Notes: generated by a model not told the origin, from the letters alone. A stretch of DNA of 44,106 nucleotides from an uncultured Gammaproteobacteria bacterium (GCA_964499655.1 CAZCLT010000001.1:1647-45752), one strand, 5' to 3'; positions 21,503 through 28,116 are shown, counted from the first letter of the stretch. Translations and numbers: made by a program.

Positions 21503-22048
21503 TCAACGTGATAATTGTTTCAAGGCGGCGCGGATGCGGTCTTCAGTTGATTCGGCGACGACATCGCGGAGGACGTCGGCCACGTCACGACGGGCGTAGC
21601 CGAGGCCAACCAACGCATCGATCGCCTCTTCGTCGACTGAATTGGGTTCATCAGACTCAGTGACGAGTACGCCTTTGAGCTCTAGAATAATTTTTTGCGC
21701 CGTCTTTTTGCCCACGCCAGGAATGCCGGTTAAGAAATCAACATCACCGGCCAGGATTTTTTCGATCACGCTATCATGCGCCGCGTTGCTCAAAATCTTG
21801 GCCGCCAGCTTAGGGCCAACGCCGTTAACTTCGATCATCGTCTCGAAGAGCTCCAACGCTTCCAGGCTAGCGAAGCCGTACAACTCACGACGATCTTCGC
21901 GCACCAAATCAAAGGTGTAAATGGCAAGCGACTGACCAATTTGCCCATCAAAACCCACGCTATAAACCTTATAGCCAACGCCTCCTACCTTAAGGATTAG
22001 CCAGTCAGGACGCCGCGCAATCACTTCGCCCTCTAGGTAACCGATCAT
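21503..22048 (-). CDS. ruvA: Holliday junction branch-migration complex subunit RuvA
   Basis: MIGYLEGEVIARRPDWLILKVGGVGYKVY at the N-terminus, HhH motifs (GVGPKLA, IPGVGKKTAQKI) and 181 aa. Confidence 0.88.
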   Translation of the reverse strand: MIGYLEGEVIARRPDWLILKVGGVGYKVYSVGFDGQIGQSLAIYTFDLVREDRRELYGFASLEALELFETMIEVNGVGPKLAAKILSNAAHDSVIEKILAGDVDFLTGIPGVGKKTAQKIILELKGVLVTESDEPNSVDEEAIDALVGLGYARRDVADVLRDVVAESTEDRIRAALKQLSR

Positions 22049-23277
22049 AGAACCCCATTTTCCCAGGTAAGCCGCGCTTCGTCAAAGAGGCGTTGGGCTT
22101 TAGTGAGGCGTTTTTGAAGTTCTTTGTTTTGCAGATTATTGGGTACGGAAAGCGACGGATCCTTTACCAGTTCTTCTAGCGCCTCAACGATCTCCTTACG
22201 GCCACGACCAAATGGCACCTTTAAAATTTTAAAAACTTCGTCGGAAGAAAGGCCGGCCGCTTTGAGCAGATTCTTGAATTCCCTCTTCTGCGCCAAGCGA
22301 ACTTCTTCACGGCGTTTCGCGCGACGTGCCGGGGCCGCCAATTCTTCACTGCGCCAAAAGTTAAAGATGGCCGTCAGATCGACAGCAAACCGACCGTACT
22401 GCTGGGACAACGAACCAACCGCCGAATCTAAAAAGACGCAGGCCAATAAAACGTCCATGGCTTCGTTCGCGTCGAGCTTGGCCTTGGTGGCTCGAGCGAT
22501 GAGTAGCTCGAACTTGGCCACATCAGGCCCCGTCTTGAAGAATTCGAGCACGTCGATGTGATTCTCCATCGCGAAAGCGAGCATTTCGCCATCTCGCGGC
22601 TCGAGCTTAAGGTGCTGTTCGATGGCCGTCCGCGCCGATCGGAATTCAGGACGAAGCGCGGCCCGGGCGTGCCCGAAGTAATGTGTTTCAATACCGTATG
22701 TTTTGAAAAATTCAGCGAGTAGTTCCCCACCAGCCAAATCGGAATGACTGAGCTCAAATGCTCGATACAATTTCAAATACAATGCTTGCTCGGCCGCGCT
22801 AGCCGTCACCGAGAGACGGCGCTTGTGCTGAGCAAAGCCTTCCATCGCGCCTTTAGAGTTACTCGCCGCATCGAAAGCGATCAAAGTTGGTTTAGCGATG
22901 TCGTGGAGCAAGGCGAAGGCTTGAAGCGTGGCCGCATTAGCCCGAATCGTCTCTTCTAGTTTGATGATTTCTTCACGCCAGTAGCGCTCGCCGACTAACT
23001 CGTCAATGGCCAACAAACTTTGGCCATCGAGTACAGCAAATAACCCTCCCAGGATCCGCTCCACATGAAAACGCACGAAAATACCCTCACAATGCCAGGG
23101 TGCCGACTGTGGACAATGGTCTAATTTCTGAAGTTCGGGCGCTAATTTTTGAGCCTCAACCAGCGCCTCCCGAGCTTGATTCTGTCGCTCTGCCGTCAAA
23201 ACGTCTTCATCCAGCCAACGTAAAAAAACCTTCGATTCCCCTTTGTTTTTAAAGATTTGGCCTCCATTTCCCCACAT
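22045..23277 (-). CDS. HD-domain protein (metal-dependent phosphohydrolase superfamily), function unknown
   Basis: H...LLHDIAKP motif. I placed the start at ATG 23277 (MWGNGGQIF...). The track's start at 23388 is a GTG that reads through a promoter-like region. Confidence 0.5.
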   Translation of the reverse strand: MWGNGGQIFKNKGESKVFLRWLDEDVLTAERQNQAREALVEAQKLAPELQKLDHCPQSAPWHCEGIFVRFHVERILGGLFAVLDGQSLLAIDELVGERYWREEIIKLEETIRANAATLQAFALLHDIAKPTLIAFDAASNSKGAMEGFAQHKRRLSVTASAAEQALYLKLYRAFELSHSDLAGGELLAEFFKTYGIETHYFGHARAALRPEFRSARTAIEQHLKLEPRDGEMLAFAMENHIDVLEFFKTGPDVAKFELLIARATKAKLDANEAMDVLLACVFLDSAVGSLSQQYGRFAVDLTAIFNFWRSEELAAPARRAKRREEVRLAQKREFKNLLKAAGLSSDEVFKILKVPFGRGRKEIVEALEELVKDPSLSVPNNLQNKELQKRLTKAQRLFDEARLTWENGVL

Positions 23278-23292
23278 ATTGTTAACTAGCAA

Positions 23293-23321
23293 TTGACAGA
23301 AATATACTTTTCTGCTATATT
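23293..23321 (+). promoter_or_regulatory. Near-consensus promoter TTGACA-17-TATATT on the plus strand
   Basis: TTGACA 23293-23298, 17-nt spacer, TATATT 23316-23321. No plus-strand CDS follows. Confidence 0.45.
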
Positions 23322-23327
23322 GACCGT

Positions 23328-23612
23328 CTGTAAGAGTTCCTTCCAACCCGGAGTATCGGCCATGGGCGGCGGATAATCTAGCGATCACCTAAAGGGGACA
23401 AAACGCCTATGTCGGCGCCCCATAAATCTGCGATCGAGCGAACAAGAAGCTTTGATCCATCGATCGTACGATAACCATCGACCAACCCGGTCGGTGCACT
23501 GCCCCGAAGCAAGAAAGATGCCAACTTCTACTCCGACTACAGGATATACCACCTGAACTACCCGTTCACCTTGACCGGTCCCTAGAGCGCCCTCGCTCTT
23601 GGCACCGGTCTC
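23328..23612 (+). ncRNA. Candidate unannotated RNA of about 285 nt (orphan transcription unit); class unknown
   Basis: It is bracketed by the promoter above and a plus-oriented intrinsic terminator. The longest plus-strand ATG ORF is 21 codons. The segment contains several local hairpins. Confidence 0.35.
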
Positions 23613-23622
23613 ATTTTATTTT
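23573..23622 (+). terminator. Intrinsic terminator, plus-strand oriented
   Basis: Outer stem GACCGGT/ACCGGTC and inner stem AGAGCG-ccct-CGCTCT, followed by TCATTTTATTTT. On the minus strand no T-run follows the hairpin. Confidence 0.6.
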
Positions 23623-24359
23623 AGGGGCTTCGAGCAATTCCAAGCGGCGTTAAAGAGAACGGTAAATGTGTCGGCAAAAACTTTATTTTCAATAATCACC
23701 ACTTCGATGTCGCCAAGCAGATTGACGAAAGCAATGTGGTTTTTGTAAATCCAAATGTTACCCTCAAAGTCACCAAATGCCTGATCGAGCTGACGTAGCT
23801 CAGCTTGAGGATTTGGATTTTTGACCGTCCCTCTGACTAAAGATTTTAGTTTTAGATTCTTAAACCCTTCAATTTTTCGTAGTTCTAAAATCAACTTTTC
23901 TTCCAAAAAATTATAAACCACGTCTAAGTTAGAAACCTCTAAAATCTCGTTGGTCTTAACCGAACCGACATCACGGAACAAAGCGCGCACGCCTTCTTCG
24001 CCAGTGTAAAAACGAACTCGGGGATGCACACCGCCTTTCATCACTCGCAGTTCCGGCAGCATACGATCCAATGAGCCGAGCTGAATCTTCATGCGCTCCA
24101 TGCGGCCATGGAAATAATCCTCCAGCTTCTCCGGATCTTCAGCACTGAAGACGGTTTTCTTACCTTTTTCAAAAGTGCTCACCAATCCTTTTTCTTGCAA
24201 ATGGCTGATGATTTCGTAAGCAGCCGTGCGACTGATTTCAGCACGCTTGGCCACGTTTTGCACGCTCTCGGGCCCGAGTTCGAGCATCGCCAAATAAACA
24301 CGCGCTTCAGTTTCCGAAAGACCAAGTTCAATAAGTGTCTTTTTGATATTTAGGGACAT
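23616..24359 (-). CDS. TrmB-family transcriptional regulator
   Basis: N-terminal wHTH LGLSETEARVYLAMLELGPESVQNVAKRAEISRTAAYEIISHLQEKGLV. 247 aa. Confidence 0.75.
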   Translation of the reverse strand: MSLNIKKTLIELGLSETEARVYLAMLELGPESVQNVAKRAEISRTAAYEIISHLQEKGLVSTFEKGKKTVFSAEDPEKLEDYFHGRMERMKIQLGSLDRMLPELRVMKGGVHPRVRFYTGEEGVRALFRDVGSVKTNEILEVSNLDVVYNFLEEKLILELRKIEGFKNLKLKSLVRGTVKNPNPQAELRQLDQAFGDFEGNIWIYKNHIAFVNLLGDIEVVIIENKVFADTFTVLFNAAWNCSKPLK

Positions 24360-24370
24360 AGTTGGAAAAT

Positions 24371-24395
24371 TAGCTTGTAGGAAGTAGCTTGTAGG
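24371..24395. promoter_or_regulatory. Direct repeat TAGCTTGTAGG-aag-TAGCTTGTAGG upstream of the TrmB-family gene; candidate operator
   Basis: Two perfect 11-mers at 24371-24381 and 24385-24395, 12-36 nt upstream of the ATG at 24359. Confidence 0.4.
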
Positions 24396-24411
24396 TTATA
24401 AATTACCCACA

Positions 24412-25239
24412 CTATACAATTAATTTCAGCACTTCGTCGAGCGCTGGCAGTGGTCGATCAACCGTGGCCAGCATTCCCCAGCATCGATCCTGACCAAAAG
24501 TGAACCCGCCGAAGTGATCGAAGAGTGCTTTGGCTTGGTCGCAATCCTGCACGTAAACCCGGCGCTGGCCCTGAAAGATAATTAAAGTCGGTGGTCCGTC
24601 CGGAAACTCACGAGCGACGATAAAGGAAAGGGCTTCGCGAATACTCATCATGTCGTCTTCAAGTTTGATGATCACGATTCCGTCCCGCTCTTCTCGCGCT
24701 CGCCACGCCACTTCGGCATCGATTTCTTCTTGCGCGAATTTCTCAGCGTCGAGCGCTTGAGCCAAAGCACGGTAGCCAGCAATCCCCCGTTCAATATTTT
24801 CCTGGCTCCAGCCCTCCTTTTTCAATTCCCAAATAAAACCCCGATCAATCAAACCAACCGCGTTCACGGTGATCGGATCAAAGCCGAGCTTCTCCACGGC
24901 CGCATCATCGAGCGCGAATAATTCTCGAAACTGTTCGAGACTGCTTTTGACTTTCATGCGATCCAAATCATCGTAACGATGATGATCGATGATCACCACT
25001 TCGAACCCCTGAACCCGCAACATCTCTTCTTCCACCTCGCCTGGGATTTCCACGATCACCACTCGCTTCACCTCAGGGTCGGCCTTCATCACTCGGTAAA
25101 GCAAATTTGGCTCACGTGATAATTTCGCGCCGTGAGGTTGATCAGAAATCACCGTCGGCAAGCCGATAGCTTGCGCCAGATACTGAATGATCAGTGATTC
25201 TTCGTCGTTCTTTCGGCAAACTAGGCCGGTGTTCATCAT
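24412..25239 (-). CDS. Hypothetical protein (275 aa)
   Basis: Long ORF directly downstream of ileS. Contains an IIDHH string, but I cannot assign it to the DHH family with confidence. Confidence 0.45.
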   Translation of the reverse strand: MMNTGLVCRKNDEESLIIQYLAQAIGLPTVISDQPHGAKLSREPNLLYRVMKADPEVKRVVIVEIPGEVEEEMLRVQGFEVVIIDHHRYDDLDRMKVKSSLEQFRELFALDDAAVEKLGFDPITVNAVGLIDRGFIWELKKEGWSQENIERGIAGYRALAQALDAEKFAQEEIDAEVAWRAREERDGIVIIKLEDDMMSIREALSFIVAREFPDGPPTLIIFQGQRRVYVQDCDQAKALFDHFGGFTFGQDRCWGMLATVDRPLPALDEVLKLIV

Positions 25240-25242
25240 ATT

Positions 25243-28116
25243 TTAAAACCCAACCCAACACTCTTGCTCGCTCGCCCGGACCTCGGCAGAGTGCTTTACT
25301 TCGTCGTCGCGGATAAAATCGATGGAAGCTGAAAGCGTGGCTTCTTTGATCGTCGGCGCGTGTTCTTCGAACATCGCTTTGACTTGATCCGACGCTGACC
25401 AAATTTTGAGCGCGATGCGATCTTCGATAGTGAGCCCGGAATCTTTGCGGAGTTGATTAACCTTGCGGATCACCTCACGTGCCAAACCTTCACGAATCAA
25501 CTCAGGAGTCAGCGTGATGTCGAGTTCGACTTTGAGCTCCCCTTTTTCGACCGTAGCCGATTTGACGTTGACCTCATCCAGAATCACCGCCAGATATTCA
25601 GGTGAGATATCACCGCTTGGCGTCCAAATAGTCATCGAACCAAGTGCCTGTTTGATAGCTCGGCCACCCGCTTCGCGTTGATCGAGTACGCGGCTGACGA
25701 TGGCGCGCGCTTCGCCCATTTTTTCGAGCACGTTAGCATCGACAGCACCGGCTTCAGGCCAATCTTCCAAGTGAACCGAAAGACGATCGGCCTTGCCGAG
25801 GAAAGCGCCGCTGATTTCTTGATAAATCACCTCGGCCAACATCGGCATAAACGGCGCCAACATTTTGGCGAAAGTATTGAGCACGGTTCGAAGAGTCGCA
25901 ATGGCTTCGGGGTCGGATTTGATTCGATCTCGAGATCGTCGCAAATACCAAGTCGACAAATCAGTGACGAACGATTGCAAAGTTCGCGCGGCCAAAGACA
26001 GTTCGTAGCCTTCCATCTGTTTGGTTTCTTCGGCCAGCGTTTCGTTAAGGCGCGATAAAATCCAAACGTCGAGAACATGCTCGCCACTTGGCGTACGACC
26101 ATCGTCATTTTCGCGGTACAACGAGTAGAACGAAAGGACGTTACGTAAAATGTTGATGAAGTTGCGGCTGACTTCGATCACGCCGGATTCAGCAAAGCGC
26201 AAATTCTCGGCACGCACGACTGGGCTGGTCATCAAATAGTAGCGAACCGCGTCGGCGCCGTACTTGCCCATCACCTCCATCGGGTCGGGGTAATTATTCA
26301 GGCGCTTGCTCATCTTCTTGCCATCTTCGGCCAGCACAATGCCGTTGACAATCACGTTCTTAAAGGCCGGCATGCCAAACAAAGCGTTGGAAAGAACGTG
26401 CAGAGTGTAGAACCAGCCGCGGGTTTGATCCTGACCCTCGGCGATAAACTCAGCCGGAAAACCCGCATCAAAATCTTCCTGGTTTTCGAACGGATAATGC
26501 ACCTGAGCGTAGGGCATGGAACCAGATTCGAACCAACAGTCCAAAACTTCGGGCACGCGGTGAAATTCCTTGCCGCCCCGCTTCAAAACGATCTTGTCCA
26601 TCACTTGCTTGTGCAAATTTTCCACTTTCTCGCCTGACAGATCTTCCAATTCCTGCTTGGAACCGACGCAAATTATTTCGCCATCATCGGCTCGCCAAAT
26701 CGGCAGCGGCGTGCCCCAAAAACGCGAACGGGAAATCGCCCAATCGTGCACCCCTTCCAGCCATTTACCAAAACGACCTTCCTTAATGTGCTCCGGTACC
26801 CAGTTGATTTCCTTGTTGGTTAAAACTAACTTCTCTTTAATATCTTCCACCTTTACAAACCAACTCGAGGTGGCGTAATTCAATAACGGGGTGTCACAGC
26901 GCCAGCAGTGCGGATAGCTGTGAGTAATTTTTTCTTTGCCGAACAACCGACCGTCGTGCGCGATAGCTCGGAGAATCTCGACGTCCACGCCACTACGATC
27001 TTCTTTGGATTTGACCATTACGTCCTTCACCTTGTAACCGGCGGCCGCGAGCGGATCGGCGACTTCGGGCACAAACTGGCCGTTCATTTTTACGTGGATG
27101 ATCGGTTCAACATCTTCCTTGTGACCGACCAAACGATCATCTTCGCCAAAGCCCGGCGCGATGTGCACCACGCCCGTACCGTCATCGGTGGTCACGAAAT
27201 CGGCCGCGACGACGCGGAAGGCGTTAGGGTGATCTTTAAAGAACGGGAATAGTGGTTCGTAAGTGGAACCAACCAGTTCAGAGCCGAGAATTTTTGACTT
27301 GATCGTGAATTCCTTGCCCTTGAAGACTACGGCGACGAGTTTTTCGGCCACGACGTAATCAGCCCCCTCAAACTCCACGACGGCATACTCAAGATCGCCC
27401 TTCACGGCGAGCAGTACGTTGCCCGGCAACGTCCAGGGCGTGGTGGTCCAGGCGATCATCTTAGCGCCAGCGAGCGGTCCGGACAGCAATGGGAAATTTA
27501 CGAACACCGAAATGTCTGTGACGTCGGCGTAACCCTGGTTCACCTCGAAGTTAGAAAGTACCGTCTCGCAACGTGGGCAGATGTGCATCGATTTGTAGCC
27601 CTCGTAAATCATCTCTTTCTCCCAGAGTGATTTGAACACCCACCACACCGATTCCATGAACGGCAGATCCATCGTCTTGTAGGCGCGGTCCATATCGACC
27701 CAGCGGCCCAAACGATTGATCACCTTTTTCCATTCCTCCGCGTACGTCAAAACTATTTCGTGACAGGAATTGTTGAATTGCTCGATCCTGAACTTCTCGA
27801 TGTCTTGGCGGGATTTCAAATCAAACTTTTTCTCGACGATGTTTTCGATCGGCAAACCGTGGCAATCCCAGCCCCAGGTGCGCTCGACTCTAAAACCCTT
27901 CATCGTCCAAAAACGTGGCACCGCATCCTTCATCACGCTGGCGACAATGTGCCCGTAGTGCGGCAATCCAGTGGCAAACGGCGGGCCATCATAGAAAACG
28001 TACGGTTTGCCCTTGGGTCGAGCTTCGACCGACTTTTGGAAACATTGGTGTTCATCCCAGTAGCGCAAAACGTCGAGCTCGGTGCTGGCGTGTGACTTTT
28101 GGTGTTCATCTGGCAT
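25243..28116 (-). CDS. ileS: Isoleucine--tRNA ligase (type 2)
   Basis: 957 aa with PPFATGLPHYGHIV (HIGH), GWDCHGLPIE and KMSKRL (KMSKS). Confidence 0.9.
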   Translation of the reverse strand: MPDEHQKSHASTELDVLRYWDEHQCFQKSVEARPKGKPYVFYDGPPFATGLPHYGHIVASVMKDAVPRFWTMKGFRVERTWGWDCHGLPIENIVEKKFDLKSRQDIEKFRIEQFNNSCHEIVLTYAEEWKKVINRLGRWVDMDRAYKTMDLPFMESVWWVFKSLWEKEMIYEGYKSMHICPRCETVLSNFEVNQGYADVTDISVFVNFPLLSGPLAGAKMIAWTTTPWTLPGNVLLAVKGDLEYAVVEFEGADYVVAEKLVAVVFKGKEFTIKSKILGSELVGSTYEPLFPFFKDHPNAFRVVAADFVTTDDGTGVVHIAPGFGEDDRLVGHKEDVEPIIHVKMNGQFVPEVADPLAAAGYKVKDVMVKSKEDRSGVDVEILRAIAHDGRLFGKEKITHSYPHCWRCDTPLLNYATSSWFVKVEDIKEKLVLTNKEINWVPEHIKEGRFGKWLEGVHDWAISRSRFWGTPLPIWRADDGEIICVGSKQELEDLSGEKVENLHKQVMDKIVLKRGGKEFHRVPEVLDCWFESGSMPYAQVHYPFENQEDFDAGFPAEFIAEGQDQTRGWFYTLHVLSNALFGMPAFKNVIVNGIVLAEDGKKMSKRLNNYPDPMEVMGKYGADAVRYYLMTSPVVRAENLRFAESGVIEVSRNFINILRNVLSFYSLYRENDDGRTPSGEHVLDVWILSRLNETLAEETKQMEGYELSLAARTLQSFVTDLSTWYLRRSRDRIKSDPEAIATLRTVLNTFAKMLAPFMPMLAEVIYQEISGAFLGKADRLSVHLEDWPEAGAVDANVLEKMGEARAIVSRVLDQREAGGRAIKQALGSMTIWTPSGDISPEYLAVILDEVNVKSATVEKGELKVELDITLTPELIREGLAREVIRKVNQLRKDSGLTIEDRIALKIWSASDQVKAMFEEHAPTIKEATLSASIDFIRDDEVKHSAEVRASEQECWVGF

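Follow-up and report, generated by a model that had tools for sequence, protein, structure and literature searches.

A Glycine-Rich Mini-ORF in a Candidate RNA Gene Convergent with a TrmBL2-like Regulator Gene of Patescibacteria

Introduction

CreT of the haloarchaeal CreTA system is a CRISPR-regulated RNA toxin; it is a small RNA with an active part made up of a Shine–Dalgarno (SD) sequence, a start codon, a handful of further codons and a stop codon, it traps a scarce tRNA through rare Arg codons, and its transcription is controlled by a DNA-binding factor encoded nearby. A unit of similar layout is described here from a 44,106-nucleotide stretch of DNA (GCA_964499655.1, CAZCLT010000001.1:1647-45752; hereafter the window), which represents contig C1 of a genome of 0.89 Mb with 96% completeness. 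The unit lies at 23293–23623 on the plus strand, converges on the gene of a TrmBL2-like regulator, and contains an SD sequence followed by the mini-open reading frame (mini-ORF) Met-Gly-Gly-Gly-stop. On balance, it is probably an independent RNA gene of ~290 nt, belonging to an uncatalogued TrmB-linked group in Patescibacteria (Candidate Phyla Radiation, CPR), with a translated Gly-rich mini-ORF of 3–6 codons as its core. As in CreT, a gene for a DNA-binding protein lies nearby, the adjacent TrmBL2-like regulator, which may control the RNA. Unlike CreT, the unit uses common Gly codons (GGC, 44%), has no CRISPR-Cas context and is inherited vertically beside the TrmBL2-like gene. Rare-tRNA trapping of the CreT type was rejected as an explanation because the Gly codons used are common.

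It has been reported that phage lambda bar and engineered minigenes, in which an SD sequence precedes an ORF of 2–6 codons, release peptidyl-tRNA and load peptidyl-tRNA hydrolase (Pth) (PMC2490762, PMC8708949), and the minigene literature (PMC2490762, PMC8708949, PMC10192219) provides the nearest mechanistic frame for the present unit. The bar minigenes are phage-borne and their effect is set by the tRNA of the last sense codon, whereas Gly is enriched here at all positions, the peptides are conserved at the amino-acid level, and the ORF is carried on a structured chromosomal RNA of ~290 nt. When compared with CreT- or bar-type minigenes as a class, the unit shares the SD sequence and the ORF of few codons but not the codons for scarce tRNAs.

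Three further groups of systems are related in layout. The dual-function small RNAs (sRNAs) RNAIII/hld, SgrS/SgrT and SR1/SR1P are likewise stand-alone structured RNAs with their own promoter, terminator and small ORF; however, their ORFs comprise 26–43 codons and their bodies are conserved base-pairing regulators, while the ORF considered here has 4 codons and the body is unconserved. Attenuators of the trpL/hisL type, ermCL, the vmlR upstream ORF and toiL similarly place a short 5′ ORF ahead of hairpins and a terminator, but they precede a same-strand gene; here there is none, and read-through would only give RNA antisense to the regulator gene. No alternative antiterminator fold was identified, and a leader-peptide attenuator was rejected, since the terminator is followed by nothing but the antisense of the TrmB-like gene and is ~200 nt away from the ORF. 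The 7-codon microcin C precursor gene mccA, Rgg/SHP and RopB/SIP are likewise cases of very short conserved coding sequence or of a peptide gene beside a transcription-factor gene; unlike them, the present unit has no modifying or export genes nearby, and its peptides are shorter and mostly Gly. No published description of such RNAs in CPR was found in the literature.

The Unit and Its Mini-ORF

The unit occupies a gap between two minus-strand genes, and its principal parts are as follows:

23293–23321, plus strand: sigma-70-type promoter TTGACA-17-TATATT with a TG-extended −10 box, 11/12 consensus positions
23337–23344, plus strand: leader motif GTTCCTTC, common to 5′ leaders of translated genes in this genome
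23350–23376, plus strand: SD sequence GGAG(T), 8-nt spacer and mini-ORF ATG GGC GGC GGA TAA (Met-Gly-Gly-Gly-stop)
23574–23623, plus strand: two-tier intrinsic terminator with T tract, recognised by fold and sequence, overlapping the TrmB-like stop codon
23616–24359, minus strand: convergent TrmB-family (TrmBL2-like) regulator gene, the conserved partner (Pfam TrmB helix-turn-helix, E 2.6e-17)

An initial annotation had described the region as an orphan promoter-to-terminator unit with no credible ORF and hence as a candidate non-coding RNA. It was right that a self-contained plus-strand unit is present and that the gap of about 290 nt (23278–23615) holds no long ORF; a TTG-started ORF of 34 codons is present on the plus strand. 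Neither "orphan" nor "no credible ORF" survives comparison with relatives, among which the unit is conserved in position across the family and the class and among which an SD sequence followed by a Gly-rich ORF of 3–6 codons recurs.

The comparison covers 30 orthologous loci of the same family, found by searching with the TrmB-like protein, and 29 orthologous loci from other families of the class, which were drawn after the pattern had first been seen (L-numbers below denote loci). In 16/30 family loci the strand convergent with the TrmB-like gene bears a perfect TTGACA-17-(TGn)TAnnnT promoter 200–580 nt before the stop codon of that gene, and in 14 of them a strong terminator is found at or near this stop codon as well; two further family loci with weaker −10 boxes bring the unit to 18/30. 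In the 16 family units there are 25 SD–ATG pairs against 3.3 expected, and 18 SD-led ORFs of at most five codons, distributed over 14 units, against 0.47 expected, the latter expectation being taken from 1000 dinucleotide shuffles in which the maximum was 4. The reverse strand of the same 16 units contains no SD-led ORF of this size. Of the two units left over, L033 begins its frame with GTG (GTG AAC GGT TAA), and L055 encodes MGN after a weaker SD sequence. In the class set, 17/29 loci carry such frames on the convergent strand, and when all 59 loci are pooled, 33 have at least one mini-ORF, with 47 frames on the RNA strand versus 4 on the opposite strand.

The composition of these frames is strongly biased. 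Gly accounts for 63/137 non-Met residues (46%) over the 59 loci, compared with a GGN background of 5.6% (p 2e-41), and it is the final residue in 22/47 mini-ORFs (p 1e-15); the Gly codons used are GGC 31, GGA 15, GGT 14 and GGG 3, and the stop codons TAA 18, TAG 15 and TGA 14. Identical peptides recur with synonymous codons. For instance, MGGV is found in four loci of three other genera of the family, in which all four Val codons are used, and its frame always lies immediately in front of the terminator, ~100–140 nt from the stop codon of the TrmB-like gene. MGGG is found in three loci including this one, with different Gly codons; MNG is likewise shared by three loci, and MGNG, MMGG and MDD are shared by two loci each. 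The sister loci L060 and L061 have diverged in the flanks, but their first frames are the same except for two changes, GCG to GCC and TAA to TAG. Such a three-periodic pattern with free third positions would be expected from selection acting through translation and not from an untranslated RNA motif. In several relatives, a second mini-ORF stops 4–20 nt before the terminator stem. The units with two mini-ORFs (L049, L050, L052, L058 and L039) often contain between them an SD-led ORF of 28–45 codons with one to four Cys, and no homology among these Cys-containing ORFs was detectable. A conserved peptide was not found on either strand of the gaps, nor was a conserved mid-size ORF (15–110 aa).

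The 5′ end of the unit also resembles that of an mRNA. The motif GTTCCTTC lies ~20 nt from the presumed transcription start and is followed by GGAG(T) at 23350–54, the 8-nt spacer, the ATG at 23362 and the TAA at 23374–76. Eight promoter-proximal copies of GTTCCTTC exist genome-wide, and in 7/8, including this one, an SD sequence and a start codon follow; because the layout GTTCCTTC...GGAGT...ATG is also found at several protein-gene promoters, the 5′ end looks like an mRNA leader. The other seven copies are on contigs C2, C4, C5, C8, C29, C38 and C43. Across the eight leaders the motif stands roughly 10–25 nt downstream of the −10 box, most then have a GGAGT or GAGGTG SD sequence, and several precede genes whose products begin like signal peptides. 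It may be a shared leader element whose UUCC is able to pair with GGAG. In the predicted fold of this unit, the SD sequence takes part in a 7-bp CGGAGUA/UACUCCG pairing with an anti-SD sequence, which is equalled by 37% of shuffles, and over 13 units there was no trend toward masking of the SD sequence by long-range pairing above chance. As for decoding, GGC represents 44% and GGA 12% of the Gly codons in this genome, and the tRNA-Gly genes are single-copy for each of the GCC, UCC and CCC anticodons. After the TAA, the frame stays open in register for 59 codons, from 23377 to a TGA at 23554–56, probably by chance.

The unit is conserved in position rather than in sequence. A blastn search of the gap against 60 relatives gave zero matches, no alignable sequence was found between genera, and only one relative, of the same genus, shares an alignable stretch, of 29 nt. 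Neither of two metagenome scans, run with the TrmB-like protein and with the hairpin pattern described below, respectively, turned up a close relative. None of the four TrmB-family paralogues elsewhere in this genome has such a unit beside it. Conversely, the unit is retained at loci whose far neighbour is not the HD-like gene found here (L047, L049, L050, L055, L056, L058, L060 and L061), so that it travels with the regulator gene and not with the HD-like gene. This contradicts the view of the region as a mere 5′ untranslated region of the minus-strand HD-like gene, since the unit follows the TrmB-like gene whatever gene comes next. At L009/L044 (G014), two tandem promoter-to-terminator units lie between the TrmB-like and HD-like genes; the first is without a mini-ORF and the second encodes MSV.

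Promoter, Terminator and Partner Regulator

The promoter at 23293–23321 had been called near-consensus, and the scan agrees; with 11/12 consensus positions and the TG before the −10 box, it is the best-scoring site within 22000–25500, and transcription would start near 23328. The pattern TTGACA-N14-TGnTAnnnT occurs in 28 copies in the 0.89-Mb genome, compared with ~0.4 expected from its 11 fixed bases. The RNase P RNA match has one copy 38 nt upstream, which is probably its promoter; the pattern is accordingly taken as the strong-promoter class of the organism. Downstream of two of the strong promoters, on C12 (minus strand, ~15678) and C53 (plus strand, ~1585), and perhaps of another on C8 (plus strand, ~11810), lie almost identical leaders, AATTCTCCACAGTG...CCACG..TT..GCC...CCGTGGCCTTTCA, without an obvious start codon; the C12 and C53 leaders may be a paralogous sRNA pair.

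The terminator stem runs from GACCGGT (23574–80) through AGAGCG-CCCT-CGCTCT to ACCGGTC (23605–11) and is followed by TCATTTTATTTT (23612–23623), whose T tract overlaps the TrmB-like stop codon at 23616–18. The hairpin is present in both the minimum-energy and the centroid structures and scores −25.2 kcal/mol in the terminator scan. On the minus strand, CAAGGTG comes after the hairpin in place of a U tract, so the terminator serves the plus strand only, as the initial annotation had proposed. Runs of 8–9 C (CCCCCCCC) are found inside or just after the units of L035, L038 and L044 (three genomes, two genera) and could be slippage-prone tracts.

A possible binding site for a regulator overlaps the promoter:

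23280–23298, no strand: imperfect inverted repeat TGTTA-N9-TGACA, a candidate operator whose right arm is part of the −35 box

The related pattern TGTYA-N7-10-TGACA over the −35 box is found in 6/36 promoters of these units, compared with ~0.3 by chance, namely in this unit, in the same-genus relative and in four loci of other families. The palindrome is a candidate operator, to which the regulator may bind. Upstream of the TrmB-like gene there is a different element, the direct repeat CTACAAGCTA (minus-strand reading; two copies, 24371–24395). In the same-genus relative L033 almost every base of this repeat is kept, between flanks that differ; it is likely the promoter or operator of the regulator gene, and it is distinct from the palindrome at the RNA promoter.

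The regulator has 247 aa. Its AlphaFold model (predicted local distance difference test score, pLDDT, 82) has its best fold matches in TrmBL2 (E 4e-13) and then TrmB, and is predicted to consist of a winged helix, a coiled coil and a TrmBL2-type C-terminal domain, the last of which, in the model, resembles the phospholipase D (PLD)-type nucleases NucT and Nuc. Orthologues of the regulator were found across the family and the class. Regulators within the genus share 78% identity, while one unit encodes MGGG and the other (M)NG.

On the other side of the gap lies the following gene:

22045–23277, minus strand: HD-like gene, a neighbour outside the conserved module (Pfam HD below threshold, E 0.034)

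It likely starts at the ATG at 23277 rather than at a GTG at 23388; no SD sequence precedes this ATG, which is separated by 3 nt from the palindrome's left arm and by 15 nt from the −35 box that serves the RNA. The HD-like gene was detected in 52/61 relatives; where a TrmB-like gene lies upstream of it, a gap of usually 110–770 nt separates the two, whereas in relatives without a TrmB-like gene at this place the preceding gene abuts it with zero gap. No minus-strand promoter-like site was found in 23278–23615 by the promoter scan. Because of this, and because the hairpin is without a minus-strand U tract, the HD-like gene is probably co-transcribed with the TrmB-like gene, and its expression probably depends on read-through from there across the antisense of the RNA.

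Transcript Body and Known RNA Families

Downstream of the mini-ORF, the following two parts can be distinguished:

23394–23421, plus strand: hairpin GGGG-ACAAAA-CGCC-TATGTC-GGCG-CCCC, outside of which no block aligns with the same-genus relative
23422–23573, plus strand: fast-evolving structured body with several local hairpins, as indicated by folding z-scores

The hairpin had already been noted and is confirmed, with its outer arms at 23394–97 and 23418–21. Its region is 90% identical over 29 nt with L003/L033 and contains one compensatory change, C-G to U-A. Because the reading frame across the 28 nt differs between the two species of the genus, this conservation is at the RNA or DNA level and not protein-coding. 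An origin as a repeat of the repetitive extragenic palindromic (REP) type was rejected, the hairpin being present in a single copy in the genome. The direct repeat CCAACCCGG is also real at 23344–52, with its second copy at 23482–90 and not from 23483 as first given. A hairpin of the form GGCC-CAAC-GGCC was found in three units only and is not general.

The fold of the whole transcript has a z-score of −3.6 on the plus strand versus −2.4 on the minus strand. When the terminator is left out, the body still folds better than dinucleotide shuffles on the plus strand only (z −2.81 versus +0.12), and for the 16 family unit bodies without terminator the mean is −3.9 on the RNA strand versus −2.9 on the opposite strand.

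The initial annotation had matched the region to none of the known RNAs that it considered, and the Rfam models concur. A cmscan of 23150–23750 on both strands at E ≤ 10 gave zero matches, and Rfam 15 at the gathering threshold found only RNase P RNA and 2 tRNAs in the whole window; similarly, at the gathering threshold the loci of 20 relatives gave tRNAs only, and none of the relatives' units matched an Rfam family. Transfer-messenger RNA (tmRNA) was rejected since the tmRNA of this genome is on another contig (ARAGORN) and there is no Rfam match at the gap. 6S RNA was rejected because the centroid fold is a string of local hairpins and not rod-like, and RF00013 gave no match; an accessible SD sequence with an ORF is not a 6S feature, although sequence models could miss a very divergent 6S RNA. 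Signal recognition particle (SRP) RNA was rejected as well, RF00169 and RF01854 being without a match here or genome-wide; the unit cannot be SRP RNA, since it shares no sequence between genera and is missing from 12/30 family loci. In this genome, 6S RNA and the small and large SRP RNAs have no Rfam-model match anywhere, and small SRP RNA has none in 25 same-order relatives, although the same searches do match control genomes; SRP RNA is either too divergent in this lineage for the models or was missed by the first-look filter.

Alternative Explanations

Several other explanations account for parts of these observations. The region could be a cis-antisense or transcription-interference device similar to an excludon, which blocks read-through into the HD-like gene and pairs with its mRNA. 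The gap without a minus-strand promoter-like site, the hairpin without a minus-strand U tract and the consistently convergent orientation to the TrmB-like gene fit this explanation; however, many relatives (the loci from L047 to L061 listed above) keep the unit where no same-strand gene follows the TrmB-like gene, and the mini-ORF with its Gly bias is left unexplained, which makes it unlikely as the function of the unit. It is compatible with a translated mini-ORF as an effect that is plausible at this locus, not one that is general across relatives. Somewhat less probable still is a purely non-coding structured sRNA acting by base pairing or protein binding, in which the SD sequence and mini-ORF are there by accident or do no more than halt stray ribosomes early. 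The structure of the body on the plus strand only and the 28-nt hairpin kept with one compensatory pair in the same-genus relative would suit such an RNA, and the zero Rfam matches would fit a new family. On the other hand, the SD–ATG pairs themselves are enriched 7–8-fold (25 versus 3.3), not just the early stops, the Gly enrichment and the identical peptides with synonymous changes are unexpected for an untranslated motif, and the body sequence is unconserved between genera.

The mini-ORF could instead encode a ligand. In Rgg/SHP and RopB/SIP a short peptide acts on the adjacent regulator, and a peptide of 3–4 residues might do so with the TrmBL2-like protein, given that the unit is tightly linked to one regulator orthologue and not to its paralogues, that conservation is at the amino-acid level with lineage-specific variants, and that convergent geometry is known for some Rgg/SHP pairs. 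Such a pair is nevertheless improbable; the peptides are mostly Gly and far below any known signalling peptide in length, an export or processing signal is absent, the C-domain of the regulator resembles ligand-less TrmBL2 and PLD-like folds, and regulators that are 78% identical within the genus face different peptides. A decayed small-protein gene or stop-codon read-through is very improbable: the open frame after the TAA, and an in-register open frame after the stop in the same-genus relative as well, would be expected from it, but among 49 mini-ORFs the longest of the three frames is the in-register one in just 16, which is the chance level, the hairpin reading frame differs between species with no longer conserved peptide, and all three stop codons are used about equally. 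The alternative raised in the initial annotation, a type I toxin–antitoxin system, has the least to recommend it and is scarcely credible. The 55-codon minus-strand ORF (23552–23385) does exist, and the plus-strand RNA is fully antisense to it; the toxin/antisense interpretation fails in that nothing equivalent to this ORF exists in the same-genus relative, where the antisense ORFs, of 33 and 43 aa, bear no relation to it, and in that no conserved minus-strand peptide is present in any of the units. Moreover, the nearest SD-like sequence, AAGGTG, is separated from the GTG by 14 nt, the ORF lacks a long hydrophobic segment, and the slight interspecies similarity is equal in the translations of both strands, reflecting the palindromic hairpin.

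A translated Gly-rich mini-ORF as the core of an independent RNA gene is the explanation retained, and several observations weigh against it. The unit is missing from 12/30 family loci, and the mini-ORF criteria were fixed after the pattern had been seen, the class-level loci being drawn later. The same-genus relative has the different frame GTG AAC GGT TAA, so the peptide varies even within the genus; a peptide of three glycines holds little binding information; and GGC is the commonest Gly codon here, which makes rare-tRNA sequestration in the style of CreT inapplicable. The SD sequence of this unit is merely GGAG(T), and there is one mini-ORF compared with two in several relatives. Finally, no operator motif common to the RNA promoter and the upstream region of the regulator gene was found, so that linkage and the palindrome are what points to control of the RNA by the regulator.

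Proposed Mechanism and Significance

In the proposed mechanism, the strong sigma-70 promoter would fire convergently toward the TrmBL2-like gene, possibly gated by the regulator through TGTTA-N9-TGACA over the −35 box. The first ~35 nt of the transcript appear to be built like the leader of a translated mRNA, with GTTCCTTC, an unsequestered GGAGT SD sequence and an AUG, on which a ribosome would make fMet-Gly-Gly-Gly and end at the UAA ~48 nt from the 5′ end. The remaining ~240 nt would fold into local hairpins and end at the terminator that overlaps the stop codon of the regulator gene. Comparative sequence data back the translation step, while the steps before and after it are inferred. Because the transcript is complementary over its full length to the spacer that separates the TrmB-like and HD-like genes, its transcription should, as a secondary and local effect, also counteract read-through into the HD-like gene.

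The position taken here is that translating the tiny frame would itself be the functional act. What that act yields can be suggested only with graded confidence: the output may be the peptide or its peptidyl-tRNA, which is the tentative preference; that it is a ribosome held at the 5′ end and stabilising the RNA is doubtful; and it is less likely that the variable body acts by base pairing. The initial annotation's "novel RNA gene" seems to have been half right, the selected core being probably the translated Gly-rich mini-ORF, carried on a structured and fast-evolving RNA that is linked to the TrmBL2-like regulator. A bolder version, which is at present hard to believe without being far-fetched, holds that the Gly-rich frames of 3–5 codons are true genes, the smallest vertically conserved ones known, whose product forms a CPR-specific circuit with the adjacent TrmBL2-like regulator. 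In such a circuit, a dedicated and highly expressed RNA would supply the tiny peptide or peptidyl-tRNA, which could, for example, report on or slow down translation or the status of glycyl-tRNA.

If the favoured explanation is true, an ultra-small, host-dependent lineage keeps a strongly promoted RNA whose only conserved content is a Gly-rich frame of 3–6 codons, always set against the end of one regulator gene and below the size that is annotated or looked for. The lower limit of conserved coding sequence would then move from the 7 codons of mccA to 3–4, and the unit would be a natural chromosomal counterpart to the laboratory and phage minigenes and to the CreT RNA toxins. For annotation, promoter-to-terminator gaps without ORFs in CPR genomes would deserve a check for an SD sequence with a mini-ORF before they are labelled as non-coding RNA, and for the biology of these organisms the question is raised whether the translation of a few codons may be a signal in itself.

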